This document shows positions 2,356 to 17,231 of a stretch of DNA of 64,000 bases, one piece after another (the stretch's first letter is position 1; each line of letters begins with the position of its first letter). The notes beneath the pieces were generated by a model. It saw only the letters and a list, made by a program, of their open reading frames with translations. It was not told the origin of the DNA and made no database searches. A program made the translations under genes and the position numbers. The stretch is from a virus, in IMG/VR virus record IMGVR_UViG_3300027857_000012, positions 1 through 64,000 of that record; one strand, written 5' to 3'.

Positions 2356-2643
2356 TCAATGTTCTAGTGTGTCAGAATACCACGTTGGTATTTTTGGATC
2401 TGGCGTGGTGAAGAATGTCTCATTCACCAAGAGCAGATAGACAGTATCATCATCTGTTTCGACTTCGACGAATTGAACAGACGATGCACTAACAGCATCA
2501 TTGAGTTTGGCGATCGTTGTATCATCCATCGCATGCGCTTCAAACGTTTGCCATCCCACAACGCCAGGGAGTGACGTGGCATCACGGAGATCACGAAGGT
2601 GGCTTGGATCAAATGTGGCATGTGCTTGTCCTGTTGTTTCCAC
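2356..2643 (-). CDS. hypothetical protein
   Basis: 95 aa ORF, GAAAGGA RBS before GTG. Confidence 0.65.
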   Translation of the reverse strand: METTGQAHATFDPSHLRDLRDATSLPGVVGWQTFEAHAMDDTTIAKLNDAVSASSVQFVEVETDDDTVYLLLVNETFFTTPDPKIPTWYSDTLEH

Positions 2644-2670
2644 GGATCAATGTCCTTTCAGTGTGCTATT

Positions 2671-3054
2671 TTAACTATGATCAATTTCATGATCGATCGG
2701 CTCGAACATCGTCAGGCGTGTGCGCAGAATACCGACGTACTCATCGAGAAACGCTACAGATACCTCAAACTCGTACATGTCTGCAGATGGAATCAGAATG
2801 CACTGCATCGTGGCGACGCCGGATGATGATTCGTGGTCGGCAGAAACACCAATAAAGAAATCACCAGGTGTGTAGTAGAGGCCAAAAACGCATACATTTG
2901 TTGGGTGCGTTTCCTCATCCACATAATCGCCTCGACGCTCCAGTTCGCACTGGAGTGCTTTGATTTCATCGAGTGTCTGTTCGACATGAGGAAGGAGATC
3001 TGGTTGTCCAGTGTACTCATATGAGAGGATTCGTCCATCGGTAAGTATTGCCAT
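2671..3054 (-). CDS. hypothetical protein (MAILTDGR...)
   Basis: start placed at ATG after GAAAGGAACACACACT leader; downstream of repeat promoter 3094-3122. Confidence 0.75.
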   Translation of the reverse strand: MAILTDGRILSYEYTGQPDLLPHVEQTLDEIKALQCELERRGDYVDEETHPTNVCVFGLYYTPGDFFIGVSADHESSSGVATMQCILIPSADMYEFEVSVAFLDEYVGILRTRLTMFEPIDHEIDHS

Positions 3055-3093
3055 AGTGTGTGTTCCTTTCGTGTAGTTGTATTTTCTATTCTT

Positions 3094-3122
3094 ATTATAA
3101 CTTGTTTTCGTGTGAATGTATA
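3094..3122 (-). promoter_or_regulatory. repeat promoter element 1
   Basis: TATACA-17bp-TATAAT on minus strand; 15 bp hairpin at 3133-3171. Confidence 0.8.
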
Positions 3123-3178
3123 TAGTTTTATCACGAATATGCATGAAATCGAATTATTCATGCATATTCGTCGAGTCT

Positions 3179-3544
3179 TTATGGAAGTGGATTTGACATC
3201 CACGTGAACAATTCGATAAGGAATGGCCCAAACTCTTCACCACGGAGTTCGAGAACATGCTCATACTGTGCACCAGGGCCCTCATCAGATGCTTCTTCGT
3301 ATGCTAGTTCTTCTTCAGTCAAAATGTATGTTCCGCTGTAGAGAGGCATCTCAGATTCACGAATAACACGAATCGTTAGTTTTGTTTCATATGCTTGTTC
3401 ACCGACACGTTTCAGGTAATATCGCGTATTTCGAAATGTGATAAGAGGATAATATTCGGGGCACGTGCCAGAATCAGAAACTTCATCAATGACCTCGTTG
3501 ATGCTTCGAATGAGTTTTTCAGTGTCTTGTGGCGTGATAAACAT
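3179..3544 (-). CDS. hypothetical protein
   Basis: 121 aa, GAAAGGAATCACACG-ATG leader. Confidence 0.75.
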   Translation of the reverse strand: MFITPQDTEKLIRSINEVIDEVSDSGTCPEYYPLITFRNTRYYLKRVGEQAYETKLTIRVIRESEMPLYSGTYILTEEELAYEEASDEGPGAQYEHVLELRGEEFGPFLIELFTWMSNPLP

Positions 3545-3600
3545 CGTGTGATTCCTTTCGGGCCGATTTTTGAGTGAGAATCGGCAAGCTCATTTGTGTG

Positions 3601-3882
3601 CTATTGAGTGAGCTGTTGTACAATTTTTTCAATGAATGGATTTGTGCGCTCGAAATGCATGTGAAGTGTGCCTACAGGATACTCTGTGCCATCTGGCGAC
3701 ATTTCAAATTCTGTTTCACCTTGTGGGCACAAATCGATGTCGACACTTATTTCATCCTCTGCATTCCACAGTGATAATATAGTGTATCGTTTTGGCAGAC
3801 CGCATACTTGTTCAATGTCGACAAATGCTTGCTTGAATTCGAGATTCGCGTTTGCGTGTGCAATTTTGAGTGGTGAAATCAT
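3601..3882 (-). CDS. hypothetical protein
   Basis: 93 aa, GAAAGGATCACACA-ATG leader. Confidence 0.75.
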   Translation of the reverse strand: MISPLKIAHANANLEFKQAFVDIEQVCGLPKRYTILSLWNAEDEISVDIDLCPQGETEFEMSPDGTEYPVGTLHMHFERTNPFIEKIVQQLTQ

Positions 3883-3930
3883 TGTGTGATCCTTTCAAAT
3901 TTTTGAAATTACTTTTGAATTTCTATTAAT

Positions 3931-3959
3931 ATTATAACACAAAACGAGTCAAAAGTACA
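3931..3959 (-). promoter_or_regulatory. repeat promoter element 2
   Basis: TGTACT-17bp-TGtTATAAT on minus strand. Confidence 0.85.
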
Positions 3960-4186
3960 TAGTTTTTACACGAGTTTTCAAGTTCGTGAAGAAATTCGTT
4001 GTTTCTGCATCATTTAAGTGAAATACGTATACTGCACACCAGAACAGCATGCATCCACGAAATGTAAGATTATATGTCCACTTTTCCAGCGCATTCCAAT
4101 ATGTGTTCAGAGGGCACACATTTCGATGTGAAATGAACGAATTTTTATTCATTTTTATATTTTCATCAAAATTCGTGCAAAAAGTA

Positions 4187-4215
4187 TGTACTTTTCCATG
4201 AAAACAAGTTATAAT
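4187..4215 (+). promoter_or_regulatory. repeat promoter element 3 (divergent from element 2)
   Basis: TGTACT-17bp-TATAAT. Confidence 0.85.
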
Positions 4216-4284
4216 AAGTATAGAAATTGAATATACGAATTGAGAACATACTTCCTCAATTCGAAGAAAGAAAAGGAAATAAAA

Positions 4285-4995
4285 ATGACTACTCAGAACA
4301 CGACAACCACACCACGGACAAAGCTCACGACACCTGAGATGAATGCAGTACGCATTATGATGTCAGATCACTATTCAACCATTCACCAGTACGACGACTC
4401 GACGATGCAGATCTTTTATGCAAAACTCGGACATCTCACAGCGATGCTCGATGGCCAGATCCCATTCGAGGGCACTCCGTCTTACACACCACTGCCACAA
4501 CTCGAGGATGTGCCTGGGGAGCGTCTCTTCACACACAAATTTTATGCGAGACGTGATGATATGAGAGCACTCAAGATGGCTTTGCTCGACAACATGTGCC
4601 TCTTGCACATGCCACACACTATGACCACAACAGACCCTGCCATCATCTACTCGAGTGTCCGCAGTTCTGCTGCTGCCGCACTTCGCAGCTATGAAGCGAA
4701 TGCTTCGTTCATGCTGGGATTTAGCCGTCGCGAAGGCAAAGAGGAAGTTTTCCTCGTCAATCCATATCGCAGCACGACATCTGTCGAGACACAAGAGGAG
4801 GAGGCAGAAATGCCTTCCCTCGAAGAGACCATCGACGAAACATCAGACGAAATCGTTGAGCCAGAGACATTCGGAGATGTGCTTGAGAAAGATGACACAG
4901 AGGAGGAAGAGAGCGAAGACGAGTCATCTGTGCAGGAAATCGCACCACTCTACGAAGAAGAGCATGAAGACGATTCAGACCTGAGCGACGTCTAA
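4285..4995 (+). CDS. hypothetical protein with acidic C-terminal tail; paralog of 14555-15148
   Basis: AAAGGA RBS; shares IMxSDH..FYAKLG.L.AM..G.IPFEG.P.Y..LP.L with 14555-15148. Confidence 0.8.
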   Translation: MTTQNTTTTPRTKLTTPEMNAVRIMMSDHYSTIHQYDDSTMQIFYAKLGHLTAMLDGQIPFEGTPSYTPLPQLEDVPGERLFTHKFYARRDDMRALKMALLDNMCLLHMPHTMTTTDPAIIYSSVRSSAAAALRSYEANASFMLGFSRREGKEEVFLVNPYRSTTSVETQEEEAEMPSLEETIDETSDEIVEPETFGDVLEKDDTEEEESEDESSVQEIAPLYEEEHEDDSDLSDV

Positions 4996-5008
4996 GACAC
5001 ATCCAAGA

Positions 5009-5045
5009 GAATCGACCAGTCGAAAGGCTGGTCGATTCTTCTTTG
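5009..5045 (+). terminator. intrinsic terminator
   Basis: GAATCGACCAG/CTGGTCGATTC stem followed by TTCTTT. Confidence 0.75.
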
Positions 5046-5093
5046 CGGGAATCAACGAGTTTTCTTCTTTATTTCAAATTCGTGTTAAAAGTA

Positions 5094-5122
5094 TGTACGT
5101 TCGATGCAAAACAGTGTATAAT
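5094..5122 (+). promoter_or_regulatory. repeat promoter element 4
   Basis: TGTACG-17bp-TATAAT. Confidence 0.85.
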
Positions 5123-5168
5123 CTATTTAGAAGATAATTCAAATGCATCGTTGAAAGGATCACACATC

Positions 5169-5447
5169 ATGACACAAGAAAAAATCGGTCAAGCAGCCCT
5201 TATTCTCGAGCATCTCGCACTGAAGCGAAAAGCACCCCAGTTTCGCGGACTCCCAATCGTCGGGATCAAAGTGAAAGAAGGCACTCAGGATATTCCACAA
5301 GTGTTGCTCGTGTTGTACCATTTATCGTATCTCACCATGCCACCACTTGATCTTGGTGTCTGCTCAACATGGATTAAATTGCACGAAGATGGATGGTTCT
5401 GCATCACCGAATCTGAGCTTCGAAACTTGTACGATCAATTATCATAA
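5169..5447 (+). CDS. hypothetical protein; tandem paralog of 5468-5779
   Basis: GAAAGGATCACAC leader; shared motifs AALI..HL, IKV..G..DI, LDL..C..W. Confidence 0.75.
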   Translation: MTQEKIGQAALILEHLALKRKAPQFRGLPIVGIKVKEGTQDIPQVLLVLYHLSYLTMPPLDLGVCSTWIKLHEDGWFCITESELRNLYDQLS

Positions 5448-5467
5448 ACTTGAAAGGATCTCAGTAC

Positions 5468-5779
5468 ATGACACGAAACGATATTCGAAAAGCTGCTCTT
5501 ATTCAGAAACATCTTTTATCGAACACGATTCCATCACTCATCTATCGTCGTTCGTCGATTCACGAAATAAAAGTGATGCAAGGACACAGAGACATAGAAT
5601 CAGCGTTTCTCGCATGGTGTTATCAAGAAGCGCTGTTTCTCGACAAACTTGATCTAACGAAGTGTACAGTGTGGGTCAGATATCCAAATTATGAAGAAGA
5701 GAAGCATGATTGGATGCTGCTCACACAAGAAGATCTTGACTCTCTTTTCTGTCAACTGCCACATGTGTTCGCAGCATAG
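5468..5779 (+). CDS. hypothetical protein; tandem paralog of 5169-5447
   Basis: GAAAGGATC RBS; same motifs as the upstream gene. Confidence 0.75.
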   Translation: MTRNDIRKAALIQKHLLSNTIPSLIYRRSSIHEIKVMQGHRDIESAFLAWCYQEALFLDKLDLTKCTVWVRYPNYEEEKHDWMLLTQEDLDSLFCQLPHVFAA

Positions 5780-5823
5780 ACTCAACGAATATTCTTGTTC
5801 GATGCGAATTCATCATAAAACAA

Positions 5824-5852
5824 TGTACATTCGCATCGAACTGTGATATAAT
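5824..5852 (+). promoter_or_regulatory. repeat promoter element 5
   Basis: TGTACA-17bp-TGaTATAAT; spacer pairs with 5797-5809. Confidence 0.85.
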
Positions 5853-5896
5853 ATATTTAGATAAAGAAAATGACCATTCGAAAGGAATCACACACT

Positions 5897-6082
5897 ATGG
5901 CAAAACAGAAAAGTCTTTTAAAAACGAAAATGATCGCGCAGACAAAGACACACTACTTTTTGAAAACCGTCCTTATGATTTTCGTGATGCTTTTCGCAGT
6001 TGGGCACATTGTGTTTCAAACGATTGCGAAGGTTCTCGAGACACTGCATGACATCACGAAATCATACTATATGTCACTGTAG
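5897..6082 (+). CDS. small protein with one hydrophobic helix
   Basis: GAAAGGAATCACACACT-ATG leader. Confidence 0.65.
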   Translation: MAKQKSLLKTKMIAQTKTHYFLKTVLMIFVMLFAVGHIVFQTIAKVLETLHDITKSYYMSL

Positions 6083-6091
6083 GAGGATGAT

Positions 6092-6445
6092 ATGTCTGTC
6101 TCAACAACAAAAATTTCATCAATGCCATATCGGAAACTCGCCAATGATCTTTGGGATGCTCGACTTGAATCTGGCAATCCATTGATCCCACTGACCATCG
6201 GAGAGACACAATTCGCTATTGTGTCTGTGTCTCTCGTCATCGTTGGACAAGAAGTCATGCCAGACGCATACGAAACAGATTGGCAACTTTATTATCCGAA
6301 TTCACTGTGTTGGAGAGTGACGTACCTTCCACTCGATGATTGGCAAAGTGATGATGTGCCATCGTATGCGAATCTCGGAATTCTCACATTGCCACATGCA
6401 TCGAAGATTCCATCTTTGTTGCTTGCGTACGTACACGCACAGTAG
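6092..6445 (+). CDS. hypothetical protein
   Basis: 117 aa, AGGAGG RBS. Confidence 0.7.
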   Translation: MSVSTTKISSMPYRKLANDLWDARLESGNPLIPLTIGETQFAIVSVSLVIVGQEVMPDAYETDWQLYYPNSLCWRVTYLPLDDWQSDDVPSYANLGILTLPHASKIPSLLLAYVHAQ

Positions 6446-6499
6446 AGTCAACGAATATTGCTTTACTGTGCAAATAAAGCAATATTCGTGCTAAAACAA

Positions 6500-6528
6500 T
6501 GTACATCTACACGAATACGTGATATAAT
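6500..6528 (+). promoter_or_regulatory. repeat promoter element 6
   Basis: TGTACA-17bp-TGaTATAAT; 15 bp hairpin 6451-6489. Confidence 0.85.
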
Positions 6529-6566
6529 AGAACTAGAAAATACAAATTCGAATAGAGGAGCACACA

Positions 6567-6860
6567 ATGAAAACTGTCAAATCACCACAATTTGAAACCA
6601 TCGAGGATTTCAAGGCACTTGAGGGTGTCATCGCAATCGAGACACATCTCTACAGGATTGGCCCAATCTCATATCCTGCCTTTCTGAAAGCAAAAGAGCA
6701 ACTTGATACTGCTGTCAATGCGCTCAATGCTTGTTTTCTAACGAACAAGCATTTCGAAGCACTCTGCATGGAGTTTCCTTCCTACATGGTTCTCTGCGTC
6801 CGAGATACACGTAAGAATGTCTCGTACTTCGAGAAACTTGAGGAGGTGCCAAATGCCTAA
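6567..6860 (+). CDS. hypothetical protein
   Basis: GAGGAGCACACA-ATG leader. Confidence 0.7.
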   Translation: MKTVKSPQFETIEDFKALEGVIAIETHLYRIGPISYPAFLKAKEQLDTAVNALNACFLTNKHFEALCMEFPSYMVLCVRDTRKNVSYFEKLEEVPNA

Positions 6861-7371
6861 CATCCGAAAACAGCGATACGAGCAGATACTTGCAAATAAT
6901 CGCCTCACGTGGAAGACGCTCCGTGGCATTGTGAGTAGCTTGAATCATCGAACAGATGACTTCTTTGATGACGAGACAGCAAAAGAAACGTGGCGAGGTG
7001 AAGACCCATATGTGTTCATGGAGAAGCGAATCATGTGCGCGCTTCGTCGACTGCACCTGTTACGTGTTCCTCTGCACTATGATATCAATCATCGTGCCTA
7101 TGTTGTTCGTGAAGAGTGCTATCATGTGCTCTTTGACGATATGCTTGAAGATGGCATCGAGAAAGTCAATGCGTTATACGATACGTGGGTCAATATGCGC
7201 AAAAGTGTTGCAAAAGAAACTGCTGAAAGCACCTATCTGAAAGCGCTCGAGCGTCTCGTCAGCGCATATCGAGACCAGATCTTCTTTTCAGAAGTTTTGC
7301 AACAATGGCAGATCCTCGAGAACGATGACGGCACGTGGCTCTCAGAACTTGACGAGGTGTTGCATGCCTAA
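6853..7371 (+). CDS. hypothetical protein (MPNIRKQ...)
   Basis: AGGAGG RBS, overlaps upstream stop. Confidence 0.7.
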   Translation: MPNIRKQRYEQILANNRLTWKTLRGIVSSLNHRTDDFFDDETAKETWRGEDPYVFMEKRIMCALRRLHLLRVPLHYDINHRAYVVREECYHVLFDDMLEDGIEKVNALYDTWVNMRKSVAKETAESTYLKALERLVSAYRDQIFFSEVLQQWQILENDDGTWLSELDEVLHA

Positions 7372-7660
7372 TCGAGTCGTCCTTACTCGTCAACAATCCG
7401 TAATTCGGTTCGGGAATCCCTACGGGGATTCCATGAACATGTTTCTTCGAGTCCTCAATGGGCTTTGGCGTGCCAGAAAAGTGATCTGTGCAGAGCGCTA
7501 TCCAGAGGAAACACAAGAACTTGATCGGTGCATTAAAGCGGGCGTCGCATATCTCAGAGAACACGAGATCGCGAGACCATGGGAATTCAATAGTTTCACT
7601 GGATACTCGTTCAAAGATCTCAGTGAGTCAATGTGGGAGGGACACTGGTCGAACTTTTAA
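7364..7660 (+). CDS. hypothetical protein (MPNRVVL...)
   Basis: GAGGT RBS, overlaps upstream stop. Confidence 0.65.
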   Translation: MPNRVVLTRQQSVIRFGNPYGDSMNMFLRVLNGLWRARKVICAERYPEETQELDRCIKAGVAYLREHEIARPWEFNSFTGYSFKDLSESMWEGHWSNF

Positions 7661-7714
7661 AATTACCAATCAAAATGAATTTTCATAAAAGTACATATAT
7701 TCGTGCCAGAAGTA

Positions 7715-7743
7715 TGTACTTTTATACGAAAACATGATATAAT
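7715..7743 (+). promoter_or_regulatory. repeat promoter element 7
   Basis: TGTACT-17bp-TGaTATAAT; 13 bp hairpin 7685-7725. Confidence 0.85.
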
Positions 7744-7782
7744 ATATTTGTAAAGTTCAAATAAATTGAAAGGAAAATCCAA

Positions 7783-8289
7783 ATGATTCAAAACCGAAAA
7801 GAACAACTTCACAAGAAATTGCATCAAATTTACGAAAATGGCGCTGGAAGAACAGAAGGTATCATTGATAGTCTGCTGCAAGAATCATTTCTTGGCCACA
7901 TCTACTTTATTCATGGCATAGGTGAAACAATAGAATATCCACCTTGTGAAGAGTGGGATACGAATGATAAAGACTACACTCTTGTCAAATTTGGACTCTA
8001 TCAAGAAGGTAATGGTTGCATTGAAATATTCTCTGTCCCAGTCTCGACAAAAGTGCTCAATGACATTGCCACTCGTATCGACGCAGCGTACTATCACTGG
8101 ATGCAGCGAGAGCCACAAAGCGTAAAACGGGACAATCCGTTCGACTATTATCGAACACTGTTCAATGTCACGATTGAATGCACGTATGATATGAATGAGC
8201 GTGAATTCGGTCGACTCTCTCCACAATCTCAACAGGCAGTGATCGAAGACGCTGAGCGATTCGCGTTTCTGCCACCAAAAGACGTGTAG
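7783..8289 (+). CDS. hypothetical protein
   Basis: 168 aa, GAAAGGA RBS. Confidence 0.75.
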   Translation: MIQNRKEQLHKKLHQIYENGAGRTEGIIDSLLQESFLGHIYFIHGIGETIEYPPCEEWDTNDKDYTLVKFGLYQEGNGCIEIFSVPVSTKVLNDIATRIDAAYYHWMQREPQSVKRDNPFDYYRTLFNVTIECTYDMNEREFGRLSPQSQQAVIEDAERFAFLPPKDV

Positions 8290-8338
8290 TTTTTCGAAAG
8301 GCTTTGAGCATGTGCCTTAAACATGCTCAGGAGCAATC

Positions 8339-8827
8339 ATGGCGAAATTTACAAAAGAACAAATCGATTTGATTACTGCACATATTGACGAAGCACATAA
8401 AAACAATCAACGGGTTTGTCTTGGTCTCTCGATGAATAACCTGTATGGTATGGAAGAAGGCACTGAATACTGTTACATTGATAAACCGAACGAGAATGAA
8501 CCCAATTCCATCACTGTGTATCCTGTTGATTGGTACATGGAAGGGAACATCCGAGAACTGCTCTATGATGATAGTCTGTCATTCGGATTAGAACATATGA
8601 CGCAAGATGAGATCAATGTGTTTGTACGCGAGACCATCGATCCGATTCATCTTCTTGACGTACAACTTGTTGTTAAGTGTATGTATGATGGTGAAACGCC
8701 AGAAACGGCTGATTACATGCAGGTTTCTATTCGGGCAAAGAGAGAAGCACTCCCTCGTCAATATGTCGCTATTCTTGCATTCGATCAAACAAAAAATGCG
8801 TATGTTACTGTCGCTTCACATGCATAG
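8339..8827 (+). CDS. hypothetical protein
   Basis: 162 aa, AGGAG RBS immediately after hairpin TGAGCATGT/ACATGCTCA. Confidence 0.75.
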   Translation: MAKFTKEQIDLITAHIDEAHKNNQRVCLGLSMNNLYGMEEGTEYCYIDKPNENEPNSITVYPVDWYMEGNIRELLYDDSLSFGLEHMTQDEINVFVRETIDPIHLLDVQLVVKCMYDGETPETADYMQVSIRAKREALPRQYVAILAFDQTKNAYVTVASHA

Positions 8828-8872
8828 GAGTCAATGAACGTATCGAATGTACATATATTCGTGTTAAAAGTA

Positions 8873-8901
8873 TGTACATTCGATACAAAACAATATATAA
8901 T
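8873..8901 (+). promoter_or_regulatory. repeat promoter element 8
   Basis: TGTACA-17bp-TATAAT; 16 bp hairpin 8840-8886. Confidence 0.85.
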
Positions 8902-8941
8902 TTATTTAGAAGAACAAATACAAATTTGAAAGGACCATTCC

Positions 8942-9589
8942 ATGACAGATTACATTACACCAGAACGCTTTGAAGTTGCTCAAAAAGAATTGAGGCAATT
9001 GTACGAGGAGAAACGCCCACTGCCCATTGTTTACTTCAATCAGCAAAAGCTCCAGTTGCTTAGTTTTTGGCAAAACCCGAGTGAAGATGGGCGGCATGTT
9101 TGGATTTTCGCAACAGCGCCAGAGAGTCCGCTCGTGTTTCAAAGTCCATTGCACGACCGACCTATTGGATACACCGAACATGATCTCACAATGCCGCAAG
9201 ACTACTCGGTACTCGACTGGATTCTGAGTGCCATCTCATATGCGCTCCGTGGCCCAGATCTTGATCTTGTCTGGATCATCGAACAGTACGAAAACATCAA
9301 TGCCGTCTCACTCGAAGGAGAGAACTGGCTTGATCAGATTCAAGACAAGGAGAAAGTTGCAAAGGTTCGTGACATCCTCGCGCACCGAGACCTCTATTCA
9401 ATCGGCAACGTCAGTGATCGAATAATCAAATCTGCAACTGGCCGAGTCGTTCGAAAACACGGAACAATCACTGACGTGATTCGAGCACATGGCGTAACAT
9501 TTGGCTACTTCCAAAGTCATGTCGGAGCCCCAAAACGACTTGCGAAACTTGCTGATGACGATGGATGTTGGTACATCACGATCGAATAG
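8942..9589 (+). CDS. hypothetical protein
   Basis: 215 aa, GAAAGGA RBS. Confidence 0.75.
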   Translation: MTDYITPERFEVAQKELRQLYEEKRPLPIVYFNQQKLQLLSFWQNPSEDGRHVWIFATAPESPLVFQSPLHDRPIGYTEHDLTMPQDYSVLDWILSAISYALRGPDLDLVWIIEQYENINAVSLEGENWLDQIQDKEKVAKVRDILAHRDLYSIGNVSDRIIKSATGRVVRKHGTITDVIRAHGVTFGYFQSHVGAPKRLAKLADDDGCWYITIE

Positions 9590-9634
9590 AGTCAACGAAT
9601 AATCTGAAATCCATTGAATTCGTCATGAAAACTA

Positions 9635-9663
9635 TGTACATTCAATGGATTTCATGATATAAT
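9635..9663 (+). promoter_or_regulatory. repeat promoter element 9
   Basis: TGTACA-17bp-TGaTATAAT; 15 bp hairpin 9605-9654. Confidence 0.85.
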
Positions 9664-9701
9664 ATATTTAGAAAATACAAATTCGAAAGGAAATACCACA
9701 C

Positions 9702-10070
9702 ATGCATCCAACAACCGTTCTTGAAAGTCTCAATACGATTATCACTGAACTCTCCGATGGAGGCATTGAATTCGAACGATTGCCAAAATTCTTTTATCGA
9801 GGCGGTGGATCAGCATTCATTTTCCAGGTTCTTGCCATCGACGAAAAAGAAGTGACATTCATGATCGTTTCGAGTTGGGACAGATACAGATCACGTCTTG
9901 TCTCTGCACGAAAATGTCTTTATGACACGATGACAGTGCAAGAATATCAAGATATTGTATGCACCATTTCTGGCACGATGTCAATCACGATCGAAACCTG
10001 GAATACCGTCATGCTTCCACAATTCATCGCTCTTGCGGTGAATCACATGCAACGTCGAACGGAGCGATGA
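9702..10070 (+). CDS. hypothetical protein
   Basis: 122 aa, GAAAGGA..CACAC-ATG leader. Confidence 0.75.
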   Translation: MHPTTVLESLNTIITELSDGGIEFERLPKFFYRGGGSAFIFQVLAIDEKEVTFMIVSSWDRYRSRLVSARKCLYDTMTVQEYQDIVCTISGTMSITIETWNTVMLPQFIALAVNHMQRRTER

Positions 10071-10074
10071 ATTA

Positions 10075-10302
10075 ATGTCGAACATACTATCACCATTCGA
10101 GCAGGAGCTCCTCGACCAGCGAAAAGAGAAACTGCTGCACTGGGCGAATAGTCTTCTCGGAACGAGGATTCGAATGCGAGGACGCCCCGACGGCGCAAAG
10201 ATTATTCAATATGAGCTTGGAACACACCTTAATGGCATCTGGGTCGCATTCGAAAATGAAGCATATACTCGATACTTAAAATACAAAGGAGAACAAGAAT
10301 GA
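10075..10302 (+). CDS. hypothetical protein
   Basis: 75 aa, GGAG RBS. Confidence 0.6.
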   Translation: MSNILSPFEQELLDQRKEKLLHWANSLLGTRIRMRGRPDGAKIIQYELGTHLNGIWVAFENEAYTRYLKYKGEQE

Positions 10303-10400
10303 CTCGTGAACAATCAATTGCCCATTTCGGCCACCCATTCGAATACACTCGGGTATTGTTATACCAACATGGAACTCTATGGCGGTTGGAAAGACCTTGA
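10299..10400 (+). CDS. 33 aa peptide or gene remnant (MTREQSIAHFGHPF...), not in the ORF track
   Basis: AAGGAG RBS, ATGA overlap; resembles TRQQSVIRFGNPY..LWR of 7364-7660. Confidence 0.45.
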   Translation: MTREQSIAHFGHPFEYTRVLLYQHGTLWRLERP

Positions 10401-10501
10401 GTATAAGTAGAATCATCTTCATGAAATCGATAGCATGCAATGTGCTATCGATTGTTGTTTCTACGAATATTTCACAATGCGCCAAATTCACATCAAAATG
10501 A

Positions 10502-10530
10502 TGTACTTTTCCTTCTTTTTATGTTATAAT
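10502..10530 (+). promoter_or_regulatory. repeat promoter element 10
   Basis: TGTACT-17bp-TGtTATAAT; separate upstream hairpin AATCGATAGCA/TGCTATCGATT. Confidence 0.85.
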
Positions 10531-10567
10531 TATCTTAGATAATTCAAATAAAAAGAAGGAAAAGTTG

Positions 10568-10798
10568 ATGAATGCTCGAATCACAACAGCACTGCTCGAA
10601 AGTCCAGATCCGATGACCACACAGGTCGTTACCAGTATTTTAGAAGAGCCTCTCTTTGCAGAAGGATCACTCGAACGCACAGACTTCTGTCAACAAATTG
10701 AGTGCATGCTCGATTATGGCTATGACATCACCACAGATTTGATCATGCGTATCTACCAAGTCGTCGCGATTACGTGGCAACAGCCACAGGCATTCTAA
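10568..10798 (+). CDS. hypothetical protein
   Basis: GAAGGA RBS. Confidence 0.65.
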   Translation: MNARITTALLESPDPMTTQVVTSILEEPLFAEGSLERTDFCQQIECMLDYGYDITTDLIMRIYQVVAITWQQPQAF

Positions 10799-10809
10799 GG
10801 AGGAAAATA

Positions 10810-11085
10810 ATGCCAAAATACATTCGTCCATTTCCTGCATGCGCAAAAGTCGGAAAAGTTGCAAGAGGGAAACACCAAGGCAAATATGAACAATGGAGCA
10901 TGTGTGGAAGTAAGAATTCACTAAAACGATTCGCCGGCATTCCATTCTACATTATTAAACGAACTGCTGAAGATACGGCTGGCTACGCTTATACAACTCG
11001 GGAAGAAGCAGAAAATGATCTTGCATTTTGGCACTGCACAATTATCGAGGAATTGACACTCACGGCTGATCAAATCGTTCGATAA
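10810..11085 (+). CDS. hypothetical protein (MPKYIRP...)
   Basis: AAGGAGG RBS. Confidence 0.7.
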   Translation: MPKYIRPFPACAKVGKVARGKHQGKYEQWSMCGSKNSLKRFAGIPFYIIKRTAEDTAGYAYTTREEAENDLAFWHCTIIEELTLTADQIVR

Positions 11086-11132
11086 AAGAATCAACGAATA
11101 ATGATGAAAGTATAATATTCACATCAAAACTA

Positions 11133-11161
11133 TGTATTTTCATCATTATTCGTGATATAAT
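11133..11161 (+). promoter_or_regulatory. repeat promoter element 11
   Basis: TGTATT-17bp-TGaTATAAT; 16 bp hairpin 11094-11153. Confidence 0.8.
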
Positions 11162-11202
11162 CTATTTAGAAATACAAATTCAATACACAAAGGAAAACAC
11201 GT

Positions 11203-11616
11203 ATGCTACTTCAACAAACGACTGCATTTCAAAAAGTTCAAGAAATTTACATTCGTCAAGAGTCGCAACAGCCTGGTGGAAATACACTCGGAGAAAACAT
11301 TCTTCCATTCATGTATGATGGTAAGAAATATACACTCTGGAGCATTAATCTTACCACCGAGACAAATGACAATCCGCTCGCTATCGACCCCGACGAATTT
11401 GATTTCGATCCTCTCTTTAATTGTGAAGACGAAGATGAGGATTTCAACCCAGACGTGCAAGAATCAGATCTTCATCTTGTCATCTGCCCAGCAAATGCAG
11501 AGAGGGATGGAGATGCGCATAAGCGGTTCATCCTGCCAATTGACGATCCTCTACTCGATCAACTGCTCGACACTGCCAGAGTACAATGGCCGAATCTCGA
11601 CGACCTCACACAATAA
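11203..11616 (+). CDS. acidic hypothetical protein
   Basis: 137 aa, AAAGGA RBS, Asp/Glu-rich middle. Confidence 0.75.
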   Translation: MLLQQTTAFQKVQEIYIRQESQQPGGNTLGENILPFMYDGKKYTLWSINLTTETNDNPLAIDPDEFDFDPLFNCEDEDEDFNPDVQESDLHLVICPANAERDGDAHKRFILPIDDPLLDQLLDTARVQWPNLDDLTQ

Positions 11617-11661
11617 GAAATCGAGTTGCAGGATCTCGCCAAAACCTGCAAAGGAATAGAA

Positions 11662-12039
11662 ATGCTCACACATGAACTTTTGAAACAACTCGAAACAAAA
11701 CATGATGATACGTATGATCACCATACTGTGATTCCTGTCATCTACAAAAATGCGCTCTACTACATTTTCGACGCTGACCCTGTCTCGTTTGCCATCACAT
11801 CTGCTGCTGCGACTCTCTATGGTGATGATGAAGAACAACTCTACGAGGATGATGATATTCTCTCATATGAACTTGCCGATGTCTCGACAGATATCTCGCA
11901 TAAAGACGCAGAACGAATTGTCAACCAAGCGTTGTTGAGTACACCTCGCCCATGTAGAACGTTCAAACTGTTTCAGGAGCATGAGCTCAACTATTATATC
12001 GTGTCGATTATCGAGGTTGATGTCCCTGATGTTCGATGA
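11662..12039 (+). CDS. acidic hypothetical protein (MLTHELL...)
   Basis: AAAGGA RBS. Confidence 0.7.
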   Translation: MLTHELLKQLETKHDDTYDHHTVIPVIYKNALYYIFDADPVSFAITSAAATLYGDDEEQLYEDDDILSYELADVSTDISHKDAERIVNQALLSTPRPCRTFKLFQEHELNYYIVSIIEVDVPDVR

Positions 12040-12202
12040 TTCGTCCACTCCTTCAAGGCTTGATGAAGATGTTCTCAAGCCTATTTTTATGCCCTCTGAA
12101 CACATATTCGAGGACCAAATGAACATGGATGATAGAATATATGTCCATGGCCAGATGATGTCGTTCCAGTTTCAATGCATTTCTTCTTTTGTTCGAAAAT
12201 AA

Positions 12203-12231
12203 TATACTTTTATCAACAATTATGATATAAT
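12203..12231 (+). promoter_or_regulatory. repeat promoter element 12 (degenerate)
   Basis: TATACT-17bp-TGaTATAAT. Confidence 0.7.
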
Positions 12232-12283
12232 TATGTTACGAAATGCAAAATAAATTTCATGTAAATTCAGAAAGGATTATCAA

Positions 12284-12463
12284 ATGCTTCCGCATCTTGG
12301 CCAATTTCTCAATTCGACATTTGGATTTCTCCTTTTAGGAGTGATCATCGTACTTGGATGTTTGTCGTTCATCTTTAGCGTTCGTTCACGTGTTGGCGTC
12401 GGGATCGTCCTGATCCTCGTTCTCGTTGGCATCGGCGGATCGATGTGGCTCTTCGGCCGATAG
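12284..12463 (+). CDS. 59 aa two-TM membrane protein, not in the ORF track
   Basis: GAAAGGA RBS; MLPHLGQFLNSTFGFLLLGVIIVLGCLSFIFSVRSRVGVGIVLILVLVGIGGSMWLFGR. Confidence 0.7.
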   Translation: MLPHLGQFLNSTFGFLLLGVIIVLGCLSFIFSVRSRVGVGIVLILVLVGIGGSMWLFGR

Positions 12464-12471
12464 GAGACGAC

Positions 12472-12642
12472 ATGCTGCTTCTGACACCACTGCTCATCTC
12501 ACAAATGCTTATGGGTCTTGGCGCGATCATTTTTGGTGCACTTGTTGCCGCCATGATGTATGCCTTGTCGAAATCGGCGCATCTCGCGCTCGTGACAGGG
12601 ATTGTTCTTGGAGCACTCGTGCTCTTCATCGTCATCTCATAG
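12472..12642 (+). CDS. 56 aa two-TM membrane protein
   Basis: AGGAG RBS overlapping upstream stop; two hydrophobic helices. Confidence 0.7.
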   Translation: MLLLTPLLISQMLMGLGAIIFGALVAAMMYALSKSAHLALVTGIVLGALVLFIVIS

Positions 12643-12686
12643 ATTCAATGAATATCACGTTCTCACATATATTCGTGCTAAAACAA

Positions 12687-12715
12687 TGTACATTTGTGTG
12701 AGAACGTGATATAAT
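12687..12715 (+). promoter_or_regulatory. repeat promoter element 13
   Basis: TGTACA-17bp-TGaTATAAT; 16 bp hairpin 12652-12712. Confidence 0.85.
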
Positions 12716-12756
12716 ACAACTAGATCGAATAAATACAACATGAAAGAAGAAGATAA

Positions 12757-13011
12757 ATGACCACTCAACAAATCGCCGATTACAATGCATATCTCGCAAC
12801 ACTCACTCCGGGTGAATTGCAAGGACTAATCGATGAACTCACAGAATACGCAAAAGGAAATGCCGAAATGTCCGAATCTGCACGCAACAACGAATCGCAC
12901 GCATGGTATTATGCATCTGCTACCGACTACGACCATGAAGAGCAACTCGCACTTGAACGTGCAGCACTTGCTCGTGCAGAACTGATTCGACCGAAAACAG
13001 CGAACGCATAA
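12757..13011 (+). CDS. hypothetical helical protein
   Basis: 84 aa ORF directly after element 13. Confidence 0.7.
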   Translation: MTTQQIADYNAYLATLTPGELQGLIDELTEYAKGNAEMSESARNNESHAWYYASATDYDHEEQLALERAALARAELIRPKTANA

Positions 13012-13159
13012 AACCAGATCATGCTGTTGAGTCCATGTCAGTTCATGTCAGTTCACTTTATATCCGGGTCAGCATGTTCCGTACAATGTGAGCAATCACC
13101 GCATCAAGAGGGCATTTCTGCCCCGGAAGATTCAGAAAAATAGCAGAAAGGACATACCA

Positions 13160-13483
13160 ATGAAAATTCAACATCTCTCAAACGAACATCTTCTCGTTCG
13201 ATTCCTTGCTCGATATGTAAAACTCTTTGAATCAACAGACACTGGAACAATCGTCACATTTAACGTTCTCTTCGATCAACAAGAGTTGTTTTTCATCGAA
13301 ACGAAGATACGTGCATGTGCAGAAATACTTTTGGCACCACTCGCAACAGCGCAGACAATGACGCAAGAAAACATTATAACGATTTCTGAAACACATCCTG
13401 CATACGGCAATGTTCTTGCACAACTCTGCTCTGCGAAACCTCTCTTTATTCCTCGAATGATCGTACAAACGGCAACCCCGTAA
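13160..13483 (+). CDS. hypothetical protein (MKIQHLS...)
   Basis: GAAAGGA RBS. Confidence 0.65.
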   Translation: MKIQHLSNEHLLVRFLARYVKLFESTDTGTIVTFNVLFDQQELFFIETKIRACAEILLAPLATAQTMTQENIITISETHPAYGNVLAQLCSAKPLFIPRMIVQTATP

Positions 13484-13842
13484 CCAGATCTCTGGACTCC
13501 GTGAAGGACGATGCCGAGTGTGTCGTCCTTTCTTTTCGTGATTGCCAAGAAGTGTGTACGCAGCCCAGGACCGAGCACACATCACAAAACAGTTCCTTCA
13601 CTCGATGCGTCACTTCGCCGCCTGCCAGGGCCGAGGATGCACATGTAAAAGAGGCATAGACACATTGGGGTGAGCATGCATACGTTGAACACAGCACACA
13701 TGTGCGAGACTCAAGCATATGCAAAATGCACTTTCATGCTCATGCATATATGCATTTTAAACACATTTTGGACATCAAAAATGCTTTGACATATATTTCA
13801 ATGTCAAAGCAGAAGATAGACGAGAACGCATTTGAGGATGTG

Positions 13843-14058
13843 CTACGACACTTGCTGTACTCGTGCTTGGAGTGTCGCGAGAAGGACCTGAAACACATCT
13901 TCGTGGAGTTGGTAAAATTTGCTTGTGTCGAAACAGTACTCACCACCGCCGCCCTCGTAGCATCCACATCCACAATGATACTCGCCAAATTCATCAATCC
14001 AGTCGTCATAATCTCTCGACTCATAGTCTGTGTAATCGAGTGTGTATATGTTTAACAT
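13843..14058 (-). CDS. small acidic Cys-containing protein (CGCGC...C)
   Basis: GAAAGGAATCACACCG-ATG leader. Confidence 0.65.
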   Translation of the reverse strand: MLNIYTLDYTDYESRDYDDWIDEFGEYHCGCGCYEGGGGEYCFDTSKFYQLHEDVFQVLLATLQARVQQVS

Positions 14059-14074
14059 CGGTGTGATTCCTTTC

Positions 14075-14380
14075 TTACTTGTCATATCGACCCATATAAG
14101 CACTCAGTGTCATGTGGTTGAGTGCTGCCTCAACGACCTCAGATGTGTAATTTTTTCGACCGTGGTATTTCGTCCCGACCCAATATGGAACGGCTGCGTC
14201 CTGGTTTTCATCCAGGTATGCAAAGGCGATAGTGTTATATTCATCATACGTGATGACCTGGGTGAGATAGGCACGATATGCTTCGAACACGTGCTTACTA
14301 TTCGATTTAATTCGAATGCGTTTTCCGTTCACGTCGAGTGTGAAGAACGTTGGTTGTGTGACTGTGGTGAGTTTCTTCAT
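14075..14380 (-). CDS. hypothetical protein
   Basis: GAAGGAGAAACCACA-ATG leader. Confidence 0.75.
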   Translation of the reverse strand: MKKLTTVTQPTFFTLDVNGKRIRIKSNSKHVFEAYRAYLTQVITYDEYNTIAFAYLDENQDAAVPYWVGTKYHGRKNYTSEVVEAALNHMTLSAYMGRYDK

Positions 14381-14422
14381 TGTGGTTTCTCCTTCATATA
14401 TTTTTATTTAACTCTTATTTAT

Positions 14423-14451
14423 ATTATATATTGTTTTGTGTGAAATGTACA
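14423..14451 (-). promoter_or_regulatory. repeat promoter element 14
   Basis: TGTACA-17bp-TATAAT on minus strand. Confidence 0.85.
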
Positions 14452-14554
14452 TAGTTTCAACACGAATATTTATGATTTCGAAATATTCGTTGAAATTCGT
14501 GCACACATCCTCAACACACACATCGAGGAGGATTGCTCCTCCTCGATCGTTTTA

Positions 14555-15148
14555 TTATTCGATTTCTGATGTTTCTGATGTGATTTCGGGTGCTTGCTCC
14601 TCCACATCCTCGGAGGACACTTGCGTGTCCTCTTCCACTGTTCCAAAATTCACAATTTCAGGATTTTTTCCACGAGACTTCACGATGGTGAGTGCCGTGA
14701 ATATATCACGATTGTTCTCGAAACACCTCAGAGCGGCAGTTTCGGTCAAGTGATTAACGGAAAACCGAAGTGTTGTTTCGGAAAAATGCATTCCGTGTGC
14801 ATCGTGGATCAATTGCAAATTTTGCCTCAGTGCACCCTTAGCATGTCGCAGATGCTCATTTTTCGCGAAGAAAAAGCAGAGGTATTCTTTCGCGCCGACC
14901 TTCTCTTTTAACGGAGGAAGTGTCTGGTATGCAGGCTTGCCCTCAAATGGAATGTTCCCAGACATCATTGCGACGAGACGACCAAGTTTTGCATAGAATT
15001 GATCAAGTGTCTCTGGTGTGTATCCAGAAAATGTCATCCAGTGATCACTGATCATGATTTCGAGCCATCGTTTTGTTTGTGCTGTCACGACATGTTTTGG
15101 TGCTTGCTCTTCGGTAGTGACTTCTGATGTGTTTTCGATGTTTTCCAT
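14555..15148 (-). CDS. hypothetical protein with acidic termini; paralog of 4285-4995
   Basis: AATCACACA-ATG leader; shared core motifs; terminator-like hairpin GAGGAGG/CCTCCTC after the stop. Confidence 0.8.
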   Translation of the reverse strand: MENIENTSEVTTEEQAPKHVVTAQTKRWLEIMISDHWMTFSGYTPETLDQFYAKLGRLVAMMSGNIPFEGKPAYQTLPPLKEKVGAKEYLCFFFAKNEHLRHAKGALRQNLQLIHDAHGMHFSETTLRFSVNHLTETAALRCFENNRDIFTALTIVKSRGKNPEIVNFGTVEEDTQVSSEDVEEQAPEITSETSEIE

Positions 15149-15220
15149 TGTGTGATTCTTCTTTCTTTGTTTGATTTTCGTTTTTTGTTTTTGAAGTTTT
15201 GTTATTCAACTTCTAAGTAT

Positions 15221-15249
15221 ATTATAACATGTTTTATGTGGAAAGTACA
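15221..15249 (-). promoter_or_regulatory. repeat promoter element 15
   Basis: TGTACT-17bp-TGtTATAAT on minus strand. Confidence 0.85.
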
Positions 15250-15397
15250 TACTTTTTACACGAATTTCGATGAATTTGGAAATATGTGGAAAACTCGTCT
15301 TTCACACATAAAAATCATTTTTCACCACAATAAAACTTTTTCTTCACATAAAAGAAGCATCCACACGAATATGGATGCTTGTGTAGTGAAATGTGAA

Positions 15398-15565
15398 CTA
15401 GCATACAAAGTAATATGCTAATAGAAGTGATTTCCGTGTGTGCGAGAGGGTCCAGGGGTGAATGCGTCTTCCAGTTTTCAAGAAGTACAATTGTGCTAAT
15501 TGTGGTTTCGTGTACTCCAGAAGCATTTTTCGAATTTCGGAACGTGTAAACAGTTGAAAGTTCAT
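15398..15565 (-). CDS. small basic protein (MNFQLFTRSEIRKML...)
   Basis: AAGGAGAATCACACA-ATG leader. Confidence 0.65.
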   Translation of the reverse strand: MNFQLFTRSEIRKMLLEYTKPQLAQLYFLKTGRRIHPWTLSHTRKSLLLAYYFVC

Positions 15566-15612
15566 TGTGTGATTCTCCTTCGTGGAAATTTGTATTTTCA
15601 ATTTCTAAGTAT

Positions 15613-15641
15613 ATTATATATTGTTTCTCATCGAAAGTACA
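15613..15641 (-). promoter_or_regulatory. repeat promoter element 16
   Basis: TGTACT-17bp-TATAAT on minus strand. Confidence 0.85.
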
Positions 15642-15659
15642 TACTTTTTATGTGAATTT

Positions 15660-16370
15660 TAATGAATTTGAAATATTCACAGAAACTCGTCGTTCACATG
15701 TAAAAGTGATTTTTTAACATGATGAAACATTTTCTTATATGTGTGATGAACATCGTTTCCATAGTGAAAAATAAAACATATAATTTCGTGAAGAAAACAT
15801 TCTTCACCACACATATAAATAATTTTTATACACGTGTCCATTGTCACACATACATATGAAATTATTTCTTTCACATGATAAACACGTTTTTCAATGTGTT
15901 AATGAGAATGTTTTACACATATAAAATCTTCATTTCGTATATATGAAGAAAACATTCCATACATATGAATAAATCATTTTACAACATGAAATTGATGAAA
16001 CACACATATTTCACACACACATGAGAAGGCATTTCTGGCACGTGTGTGCTTTTGTGAAAAATCGATGTGAGCGTTTTCATGTCATTCTCGTGTACGAATG
16101 GTGTGCTCGATGTGAAAATGTGACCTGTGTCGCTGGAGGAAAAGATGTATAATCTATCATCTCACACATTCCACATTCGATCGTGTGTGTCGTATGTGAA
16201 GAGAATATATGTGTGTACACGTGTGTGATGAACATAAAAATCGATGTGACATCTCACATGAAATAAAATTTCATTTTCATATGTGTAAAAGATTCGTTTA
16301 TCATGTGTGTAAGTACATCATTCACACACGTATATAAAGGTATAAAAACGAATTTCTTCACATACGAAAT
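15660..16370. repeat. AT-rich non-coding region with degenerate repeats between divergent promoters
   Basis: TGTGTGATGAACAT x2, TGAAGAAAACATTC x2, AAAAATCGATGTGA x2, many CACAT/ATGTG words; no credible ORF. Confidence 0.7.
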
Positions 16371-16386
16371 ATTCGTGAAAAAACTA

Positions 16387-16415
16387 TGTACATTCCACAC
16401 GTTTCATGTTATAAT
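16387..16415 (+). promoter_or_regulatory. repeat promoter element 17
   Basis: TGTACA-17bp-TGtTATAAT. Confidence 0.85.
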
Positions 16416-16466
16416 AGATATAGAAGTTCAATACAAATGATTCACATGAAAAGGAGAATATCACAC

Positions 16467-16682
16467 ATGCAAAATCGAGATTCAAAACGTTCAAAAATCC
16501 CACAAGCATACAAAGACATATGTAACGAAATTAATCGCATTGAGCACATTCTCGATCACTCTTGTGGTGAGTTTCGTTTGTATGCTATTAACAAGCAATT
16601 GAAAGCATCTATCCCCAGTGCATACAAACTCATATTACGAGGTTCATACCATCATGGTCATTACAAACTCGAGTATGCATAA
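16467..16682 (+). CDS. small basic hypothetical protein
   Basis: AAAGGAGAATATCACAC-ATG leader. Confidence 0.7.
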   Translation: MQNRDSKRSKIPQAYKDICNEINRIEHILDHSCGEFRLYAINKQLKASIPSAYKLILRGSYHHGHYKLEYA

Positions 16683-16690
16683 GCATACAT

Positions 16691-16732
16691 CATAAAAATG
16701 CATTAGTATTTTCGTACTAATGCATTTTTATG
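16691..16732 (+). terminator. 18 bp perfect hairpin, likely terminator
   Basis: CATAAAAATGCATTAGTA-ttttcg-TACTAATGCATTTTTATG. Confidence 0.7.
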
Positions 16733-16786
16733 TAAAAACGAATTTTACGAATATTTGAGAATTAATGAAAATTCACATAAAAAGTA

Positions 16787-16815
16787 TGTACTTTCTCATC
16801 GAAACAGTATATAAT
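16787..16815 (+). promoter_or_regulatory. repeat promoter element 18
   Basis: TGTACT-17bp-TATAAT. Confidence 0.85.
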
Positions 16816-16872
16816 ATATTTAGAAATTAAAAATTAATTTCACAAAACAAAAACGAAAGTGAGAATCACACA

Positions 16873-17064: not shown

Positions 17065-17202
17065 ACGAAAATAGTGGAGAGGTTTCCCTCTCCACACACG
17101 AGAGGGCATTTGAGATGTTTCTCATTCAGCGCATAAGCAAGCATCATGCACATACGAATTTTACGAATATTTCAGAATACATGAAAATTCGTGAAGAAAC
17201 TA

Positions 17203-17231
17203 TGTACATTTGATGAAAAACATGTTATAAT
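17203..17231 (+). promoter_or_regulatory. repeat promoter element 19
   Basis: TGTACA-17bp-TGtTATAAT. Confidence 0.85.

Follow-up and report, generated by a model that had tools for sequence, protein, structure and literature searches.

Promoter-early stem-loops (PeSLs), cassettes in which a promoter is accompanied by a stem-loop, have been described in the T4-type phages RB49/phi1, T4/PST and KVP40/nt-1 (Arbiol et al. 2010, PMC2839356; Comeau et al. 2014, PMC4122927). They have been sorted into five placement classes, which include stem-loops lying between the two promoter boxes and stem-loops overlapping either the -35 or the -10 (PMC2839356), and their stems have been summarised by the consensus forms GN-loop-CN, A3-4G3-loop-C3T3-4 and AGNA-loop-TCNT (PMC4122927). 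In a lacZ assay, one such stem-loop proved as effective a terminator as rrnB T1, and a role in cassette shuffling was proposed by the same authors (PMC2839356). Here we describe perfect hairpins embedded in the copies of a promoter cassette in the early region of an uncultured soil phage, for which, by analogy of layout, the closest known system is the PeSL cassette. The stretch of DNA under analysis, referred to below as the window, covers the first 64 kb of IMG/VR virus record IMGVR_UViG_3300027857_000012, which consists of one contig of 134,001 bp and is rated complete by CheckV.

The two systems have several characteristics in common, as far as the published accounts of PeSLs describe them. 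In both, a strong sigma-70-type promoter, comprised of a -35, approximately 17 nt of spacer and a -10, precedes a Shine-Dalgarno sequence and a start codon, the promoters of the present phage being predicted ones; a stem-loop is found between genes, past a stop codon, where it precedes the promoter, falls within it or overlaps part of it; the units are concentrated among small genes without known function; and the stem-loop is proposed, and in one PeSL case was shown, to terminate or attenuate upstream transcription. By contrast, the phage described here is not T4-like, with no T4-type phage among the listed best records for its terminase and head protease. PeSL stems are portrayed in those accounts as short, as following a family consensus and as tolerating G-T pairs, whereas the stems found here are 13-16 bp long, perfect and different in each copy. 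Their arms also straddle conserved parts of the promoter, giving loops of 15-29 nt, and the -35-like box is ATGTAC rather than TTGACA.

Resemblance to two further types of element is only partial. The hairpins share with intrinsic terminators a stable stem-loop a few nucleotides past a stop codon, a position at which relatives of the phage have canonical terminators, but terminators have loops of 3-8 nt followed by a T tract, whereas the long-looped hairpins described here have no such tract, their tail being the A/T-rich -10 of the next promoter. They likewise recall the RNase III hairpins of the T7/T3 and SP82 early mRNAs, which lie between the early gene units of lytic phages transcribed by the host RNA polymerase and are without T tracts. 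Classical RNase III sites, however, are longer and have internal loops or a shared sequence, whereas the present hairpins are shorter, perfect and copy-specific. A literature search, which is not proof of absence, found no copy-specific hairpin that pairs a promoter spacer with upstream DNA. Promoter and stem-loop cassettes are already known as a general kind; the embedded form complementary to the spacer appears to be new.

Perfect hairpins in the copies of a predicted early promoter cassette

A repeat unit of about 100 nt stands in the same position, at the head of every group of small genes, between 2.3 and 19.6 kb of the window. A scan of the whole genome with the regular expression ATGTA[CT]-N17-19-TATAAT-like returned 40 promoter-like units, which without exception share the box ATGTAC(A/T)TT, followed by a spacer of 17 nt and TGnTATAAT; a second scan gave the form TGTACA-17-TATAAT, often with TG. 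Those of the early array are all oriented towards the downstream gene. Their consensus, orientation and distance to ribosome sites suggest that the cassette units act as promoters. Across 110 promoters of this phage and its relatives, the fixed parts of the cassette are two upstream motifs, a stretch rich in A, the ATGTAC box itself and the extended -10; of the two motifs, the CAACGAAT type begins 39-40 nt (or 49-50 nt) and the ATTCGTG type 15-16 nt before ATGTAC. Free variation is confined to two windows of roughly 16-17 nt each, namely the interval that separates the upstream motifs from each other and the spacer between the -35-like box and the -10, and it is exactly these two that the embedded hairpins pair. 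As the arms are confined to the free windows, a stem can be no longer than about 16 bp, and the conserved middle of the cassette inevitably falls in the loop.

A first-pass annotation of the window had listed six elements in which the variable upstream segment is the reverse complement of that copy's own promoter core (embedded hairpins 1 to 6 in Table 1), and all six pairs of arms are exact reverse complements with the loops of 15-29 nt that it reported. Three further hairpins, which it described as pairing ACGAATA with TATTCGT upstream of the -35, are likewise perfect (the upstream-type hairpins of Table 1). The list of six was real but incomplete, since the same architecture is present at genome positions 71794-71841 and 116824-116862. 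Its statement that the register is not kept does not hold for most copies: of the 21 embedded hairpins known from the phage genome and its relatives, 13 share a placement in which the 3' arm starts 6-10 nt past the A of ATGTAC and stops just before the extended -10. In six others the arm starts at -2 to +1 and so takes in the -35-like box, and in the remaining two it runs into the -10.

The hairpins are real, specific to their own copy and far above chance expectation. The 134,001-bp genome contains 50 perfect inverted repeats that combine a stem of at least 11 bp with a loop of 3-45 nt, 21 of them within positions 1-21,000, in comparison to a mean of 2.9 (maximum 7) in 30 order-2 Markov shuffles and a mean of 1.1 (maximum 3) in 30 block shuffles. 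When upstream arms were exchanged between promoters, complementarity of at least 13 bp was found in 8/1560 swapped pairs, four of which come from two overlapping divergent promoter pairs, against 8/40 promoters paired with their own arm; at a threshold of 11 bp, the figures were 45/1560 and 12/40. The basic ACGAAT/ATTCGT pair of at least 6 bp behaves differently, occurring in 62% of own and 59% of swapped combinations; this is mostly a palindrome of the conserved motifs, and only its long versions are copy-specific. Folded as DNA, the six embedded hairpins have energies between -9.2 and -15.3 kcal/mol (z -5.0 to -5.8); not one of 200 shuffles of each folded as well. As RNA, the same six reach -16.1 to -29.7 kcal/mol (z -4.1 to -7.7), and a set of 18 hairpins -15.2 to -30.6 kcal/mol (z -4.1 to -11.8). 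A search of positions 1-21,500 against Rfam gave no match at the gathering score.

The pattern is also found outside this genome. A pattern scan of metagenomes found the same cassette in arrays on the soil contigs WNGM01000261.1, Ga0137397_10000182, Ga0137397_10000480, Ga0310811_10000777 and others, and these are true but distant relatives, with protein identities of 30-47% and collinear replication genes. Three related contigs harbour 13 more embedded hairpins of 11-16 bp, in the same registers and with unrelated arm sequences. An earlier scan of the viral_contigs collection had returned 64 loci, which were mostly single chance matches and included one true relative (L021), while a scan of genome_contigs gave 44 single matches and no arrays. 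When the related contigs were aligned to each other in a mosaic comparison, only a single promoter stretch of 150 nt could be aligned.

Several properties of the cassette itself are of note. The CAACGAAT-type and ATTCGTG-type motifs are in inverted orientation about two helical turns apart (for example at 9591-9633), and this fixed pair looks like regulator binding sites or an UP-like element. The first motif directly adjoins the stop codon of the preceding gene, in many cases a TAG, and longer cassettes have extra ACGAAT/ACGAGT repeats at 49-50 nt before ATGTAC. The -35-like box, ATGTAC(A/T)TT with a palindromic TGTACA core in place of TTGACA, is invariant across about 110 promoters of this phage family, including those of the related loci L021, L074, L077, L078, L114, L121 and L165. 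No sigma-70 region 2 was found in the phage; the box may be read by a host sigma factor with an unusual preference, or by an injected factor. Two pairs of cassette promoters are divergent and overlapping (genome 114739/114779 and 123023/123040), such that their back-to-back boxes form inverted repeats of 11-12 bp, which are not operon-end hairpins.

Dependence of the hairpins on the upstream stop codon

Whether a cassette carries an embedded hairpin is decided by the position of the upstream stop codon. Promoters of the phage genome and the related contigs were classified by the distance to the preceding co-directional open reading frame (ORF) of at least 60 amino acids, an embedded hairpin being counted when its stem reached 11 bp; the count leaves out the four promoters of the two divergent pairs and promoters less than 150 nt from the end of a locus. 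Where the upstream stop lies no more than 46 nt before ATGTAC, 15 of 23 promoters have an embedded hairpin. This falls to 2 of 36 where the stop is 47-140 nt away, and the same fraction, 2/36, is found where no such ORF precedes the promoter (15/23 tight junctions against 4/72 for the rest; Fisher p = 1.2e-8). Seen from the repeats, 15 of the 21 perfect ones between 1 and 21 kb begin 6-25 nt past the stop of an ORF, and a perfect repeat is present at nine of the ten consecutive plus-strand junctions between 5.0 and 12.7 kb.

Most junctions of the 47-140 nt class have a stand-alone stem-loop after the stop codon instead. In the relatives, many of these consist of a GC-rich stem followed by a T tract (L114 at 6693, 6233 and 5099; L121 at 8661 and 7771; L082 at 8425). 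The same kind of long perfect hairpin is found at the end of the array (19588-19631), where no promoter follows. The dependence on the stop codon and the pattern across junctions thus indicate that the hairpin belongs to the end of the upstream unit, and lies on the promoter only where there is no room elsewhere, the embedded hairpin being one placement variant of a general rule of one stem-loop per operon end.

Proposed function and origin

On balance, the hairpin is probably an operon-end signal in RNA, halting or trimming read-through transcripts, and template switching would both have produced the stem and have preserved its perfection. A role at the level of RNA, exerted on read-through transcripts, is suggested by the position after stop codons, the equivalence to terminators in relatives and the association of one hairpin with one promoter. 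Of the three functions put forward in the first-pass annotation, namely an RNA 3'-end or processing signal, a cruciform promoter switch and an attC-like recombination substrate, it is the RNA option that best fits the dependence on the upstream stop. According to this proposal, each inverted repeat would be the end hairpin of the upstream early unit, overlaid on the start of the next promoter. With the upstream gene ending at the cassette boundary, no space would be left for a separate stem-loop, and the first window would be the reverse complement of the spacer. As soon as the spacer had been transcribed, a read-through transcript could then fold into a stem of 13-16 bp, leaving the conserved parts of the promoter in the loop. 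Such a hairpin might attenuate or terminate read-through, or serve as a 3' barrier or processing point, or both, as has been suggested and in part demonstrated for PeSL stem-loops, and termination or attenuation on the one hand and a barrier or processing role on the other appear about equally likely. As a consequence, each unit would be expressed from its own promoter.

The arms seem to have arisen repeatedly and independently, as had been proposed from the initial inspection of the window. The spacers fall into shared families, with 11-15 of 18 positions identical to the nearest other spacer, often that of a copy lacking a hairpin, whereas in copies with a hairpin the upstream window is matched by no spacer other than its own. 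This suggests that the upstream arm has been written from the spacer on repeated, independent occasions, and the arrangement recurs in at least three distantly related metagenomic phages. A divergent-promoter relic was considered as the source of those arms that contain the -35-like box and was rejected, as no -10 could be seen by eye at the right distance on the other strand. We infer that the upstream arm is copied from a pre-existing spacer by template switching during replication, which would generate a perfect stem in a single event and later restore its perfection. Template switching has been reported to produce perfect hairpins in one event and to correct imperfect ones (PMC8794818, PMC5941160). 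The distribution of the stems fits such an origin: among those reaching 12 pairs, 33 are perfect, 18 have one mismatch and 33 have two, many of the imperfect entries merely extending perfect stems, while the corresponding means of six shuffles were 0.5, 2.3 and 11.7. Template-switch (quasipalindrome) mutagenesis as presented in these studies likewise leaves perfect repeats in excess of imperfect ones, one arm appearing as a reverse-complement copy of a neighbouring sequence already in place, although the cases they treat come from bacterial chromosomes and RNA genes, whereas here it is a promoter's own spacer that would have been turned repeatedly into a regulatory hairpin (PMC5941160, PMC8794818).

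A number of observations weigh against the operon-end proposal. The six hairpins are unlike intrinsic terminators in the length of their loops and in having only 0-4 T among the first nine bases of the tail, and a simple terminator scan flagged none of them (0/6). Canonical T-tract terminators occur elsewhere in the genome, 5' of the promoters at 82193, 104005 and 106765, which indicates that the host probably needs a T tract for efficient termination. Stems made up entirely of Watson-Crick pairs go beyond what an RNA function would seem to require, and mismatches at the stem edges show no significant strand bias towards G:U compatibility (16 sense, 11 antisense; p = 0.44). Furthermore, 8 of the 23 tight junctions have no embedded hairpin of at least 11 bp, and the link to short junctions could arise in part from the fact that only short-form promoters have a free upstream window. 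Finally, the genes are crude ORF calls and the promoters consensus predictions.

The lack of a T tract, together with the perfection of the stems and their location between gene units, would suit RNase III-type sites, at which early read-through is cut into unit messages with a protective 3' half-stem and without termination. Hairpins 5 and 6 extend to 17-20 pairs with one or two mismatches, and RNA of phage SP82 is cleaved by the host RNase III, as cited in PMC4838370. Nevertheless, such an account is unlikely: most stems are only 13-16 bp, no phage-encoded RNase III was detected (PF14622, 0 matches), and the canonical terminators at the same position in relatives point to termination rather than cutting. 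Classical RNase III substrates have a duplex of around two helical turns, longer than most of the stems found here. A further form of termination, and quite an unlikely one, requires no U tract. Here the terminators would be both templated by and dependent on the promoter, the reverse complement of the spacer, once copied upstream, constituting an insulator acquired in a single mutational step. RNA polymerase parked at the strong promoter would halt the read-through polymerase as the second arm emerges, leaving it at a point where the hybrid, formed over the -10 and discriminator, is A/U-rich and weak. Were this true, termination would scale with promoter occupancy, making the units self-insulating gene cassettes.

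The lack of a significant bias in the wobble test and the predominance of perfect stems are in keeping with a neutral by-product of replication that is prone to template switching and writes reverse complements into unconstrained DNA. Perfect repeats are in excess outside the early region too (0.257 per kb, in comparison to 0.127 per kb in 156 unrelated contigs), and at least eight lie inside long ORFs. A neutral process, however, would not be expected to fill 15/23 tight junctions but 4/72 elsewhere, nor to pair the spacer 21 times with the upstream window but once (10505-10565) with the equally free leader, nor to spare almost entirely the divergent promoters that have no upstream gene. As the stems also stay perfect in spite of promoter copies differing by about 30%, and recur in relatives at 30-47% protein identity, we regard neutrality as an unlikely explanation. 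Strict Watson-Crick pairing and the stability of the DNA folds (z about -5 to -6) would instead suit a role in DNA, in which the repeat extrudes as a cruciform or folds in the single strands exposed by replication or recombination; by placing the -35-like box in a loop, this could silence the promoter, or it could provide a hot spot for cassette exchange. Recombination has been mapped within a PeSL stem-loop of RB49 (PMC2839356), and the present phage encodes an Xer-like tyrosine recombinase (genome 100032-101024). Such a role is nonetheless improbable, in that it gives no reason to expect a dependence on where the upstream gene stops, and loops of 15-29 nt would strongly disfavour extrusion of a cruciform from duplex DNA. 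The suggestion of an attC-like substrate fared no better, as the stems are perfect, without extrahelical bases or a conserved box at the base, and have variable ends, while the sole tyrosine recombinase is a generic Xer-like protein 87 kb away that scores 54.8 bits against an integron-integrase cut-off of 265, its best-scoring stretch covering only about the last 50 residues. Both the cruciform switch and the attC-like substrate are accordingly disfavoured. The fixed inverted ACGAAT/ATTCGT-type pair, with its separation of about two helical turns, could point to palindromic operators for a dimeric regulator of early transcription, but that pair is a separate feature with little difference between own and swapped combinations (62% and 59%); as the long arms differ in every copy, and so could not be read by a single protein, an operator reading of them is close to excluded and highly improbable.

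With these hairpins, composite cassettes of promoter and stem-loop become known beyond the T4-type coliphages and vibriophages, in uncultured soil phages of an unrelated family. They represent an extreme of packing, in which a hairpin is made from the only two free windows of a promoter. Some 20 independent, perfect and copy-specific stems from four phages offer natural material for testing whether template switching can yield regulatory RNA hairpins in a single step, and the set is similarly suited to testing whether long-loop stems without a U tract can act as transcription stops or trimmers beside an occupied promoter. For annotation, such hairpins may mark operon ends even though terminator finders miss them.

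The phage and its further repeats

The phage is only remotely related to those already described. Near and distant DNA searches of the phage collection found no relative of the genome, and its recognisable proteins, a large terminase, head protease, adaptor and primase, have best matches that are just 27-38% identical. The large terminase is no more than 38% identical to that of any phage record, and for the head protease the only matches, at 37%, are with phages of Streptomyces and Rhodococcus. Among sequencing runs, one DNA run, possibly that of the source sample, matched this DNA, and no RNA run did. Searching viral_contigs with the terminase retrieved one contig of 5.6 kb, at 67% identity and without the early region, whereas one early protein found no relative in the same collection. 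None of ten early proteins tested had a Pfam or PHROG match, and only eight ORFs of the early region (1-21 kb) match the related contigs, two of these over no more than 38 residues. The tyrosine recombinase, 330 amino acids in length and encoded at genome 100032-101024 (L218:1075-2067), is found in an otherwise lytic-looking phage. Of the models, XerC gives it the highest score, 98 bits where 335 are required, and it falls far below every equivalog cut-off. A cassette promoter follows the recombinase gene, with a 10-bp repeat of the -35-like box.

Table 1. The early array and its hairpins, in window coordinates
Feature	Position	Strand	Description
Early cassette array	2356..19631	.	~20 promoter-unit copies, each heading 1-3 small genes
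Embedded hairpin 1	5797-5809 / 5829-5841	+	13 bp, loop 19; 18 nt past stop of ORF 5468-5779; 3' arm is spacer of predicted promoter 5823-5852
Embedded hairpin 2	7685-7697 / 7713-7725	+	13 bp, loop 15; 25 nt past stop 7660; 3' arm takes in -35-like box of predicted promoter 7714-7743
Embedded hairpin 3	8840-8855 / 8871-8886	+	16 bp, loop 15; 13 nt past stop 8827; 3' arm takes in -35-like box of predicted promoter 8872-8901
Embedded hairpin 4	9605-9619 / 9640-9654	+	15 bp, loop 20; 16 nt past stop 9589; 3' arm is entire spacer of predicted promoter 9634-9663
Embedded hairpin 5	11094-11109 / 11138-11153	+	16 bp, loop 28; 9 nt past stop 11085; 3' arm is spacer of predicted promoter 11132-11161
Embedded hairpin 6	12652-12667 / 12697-12712	+	16 bp, loop 29; 10 nt past stop 12642; 3' arm runs into -10 of predicted promoter 12686-12715
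Upstream-type hairpin	6451..6489	+	15 bp, loop 9; extends conserved ACGAAT/ATTCGT pair; 6 nt past stop 6445; just 5' of predicted promoter 6499-6528
Upstream-type hairpin	18790..18829	+	14 bp, loop 12; 12 nt past stop 18778; 5' of predicted promoter 18839-18868
Upstream-type hairpin	3133..3171	-	15 bp, loop 9; 8 nt past stop (3179) of ORF 3179-3544(-); upstream of predicted minus-strand promoter 3122-3094
Stand-alone operon-end hairpin	5008..5039	+	12 bp, loop 8, RNA -25.6 kcal/mol; 13 nt past stop 4995; before predicted promoter 5093-5122
Stand-alone hairpin	10425..10453	+	11 bp, perfect, loop 7, T-rich tail; before predicted promoter 10501-10530
Stand-alone operon-end hairpin	16691..16732	+	18 bp, loop 6; 9 nt past stop 16682; without T tract
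Stand-alone operon-end hairpin	17480..17509	+	11 bp, loop 8; 14 nt past stop 17466
Stand-alone operon-end hairpin	18013..18038	+	11 bp, loop 4; 23 nt past stop 17990
Operon-end hairpin, no promoter behind	19588..19631	+	16 bp, loop 12; 10 nt past stop 19578; closes plus-strand early array
Stand-alone hairpin	14522..14547	-	11 bp, loop 4; 8 nt past stop (14555) of ORF 14555-15148(-); before predicted minus-strand promoter 14452

Besides the hairpins of Table 1, the early region contains a perfect inverted repeat of 18 bp with a loop of 25 nt (10505-10565), in which the spacer of the predicted promoter 10501-10530 pairs with the ribosome-site and start region of the gene at 10568-10798. Because the 5' arm precedes the promoter's own start point, the ribosome site of this gene would be masked in read-through transcripts only, the same logic of ribosome-site masking as in the case of the T4 lysozyme. 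A GC-rich stem of 9 bp with a loop of 4 nt (17074-17095), below the 11-bp threshold, follows the gene at 16873-17064; it has no T tract on the plus strand, and was called as a terminator for the minus strand only.

Perfect repeats of 11-17 bp inside long ORFs are found at 44480-44507, 44740-44783, 58451-58523 and 62473-62539 of the window, and further ones at genome positions 82447-82511, 104776-104839, 109217-109254 and 118132-118178, in excess of what shuffling of the entire genome gives. These may reflect a general tendency to template switching, or be internal RNA structures. The longest perfect inverted repeat of the genome, at 113916-113974, has a stem of 25 bp and a loop of 9 nt, and is intergenic, lying 5 nt from the end of a minus-strand ORF.

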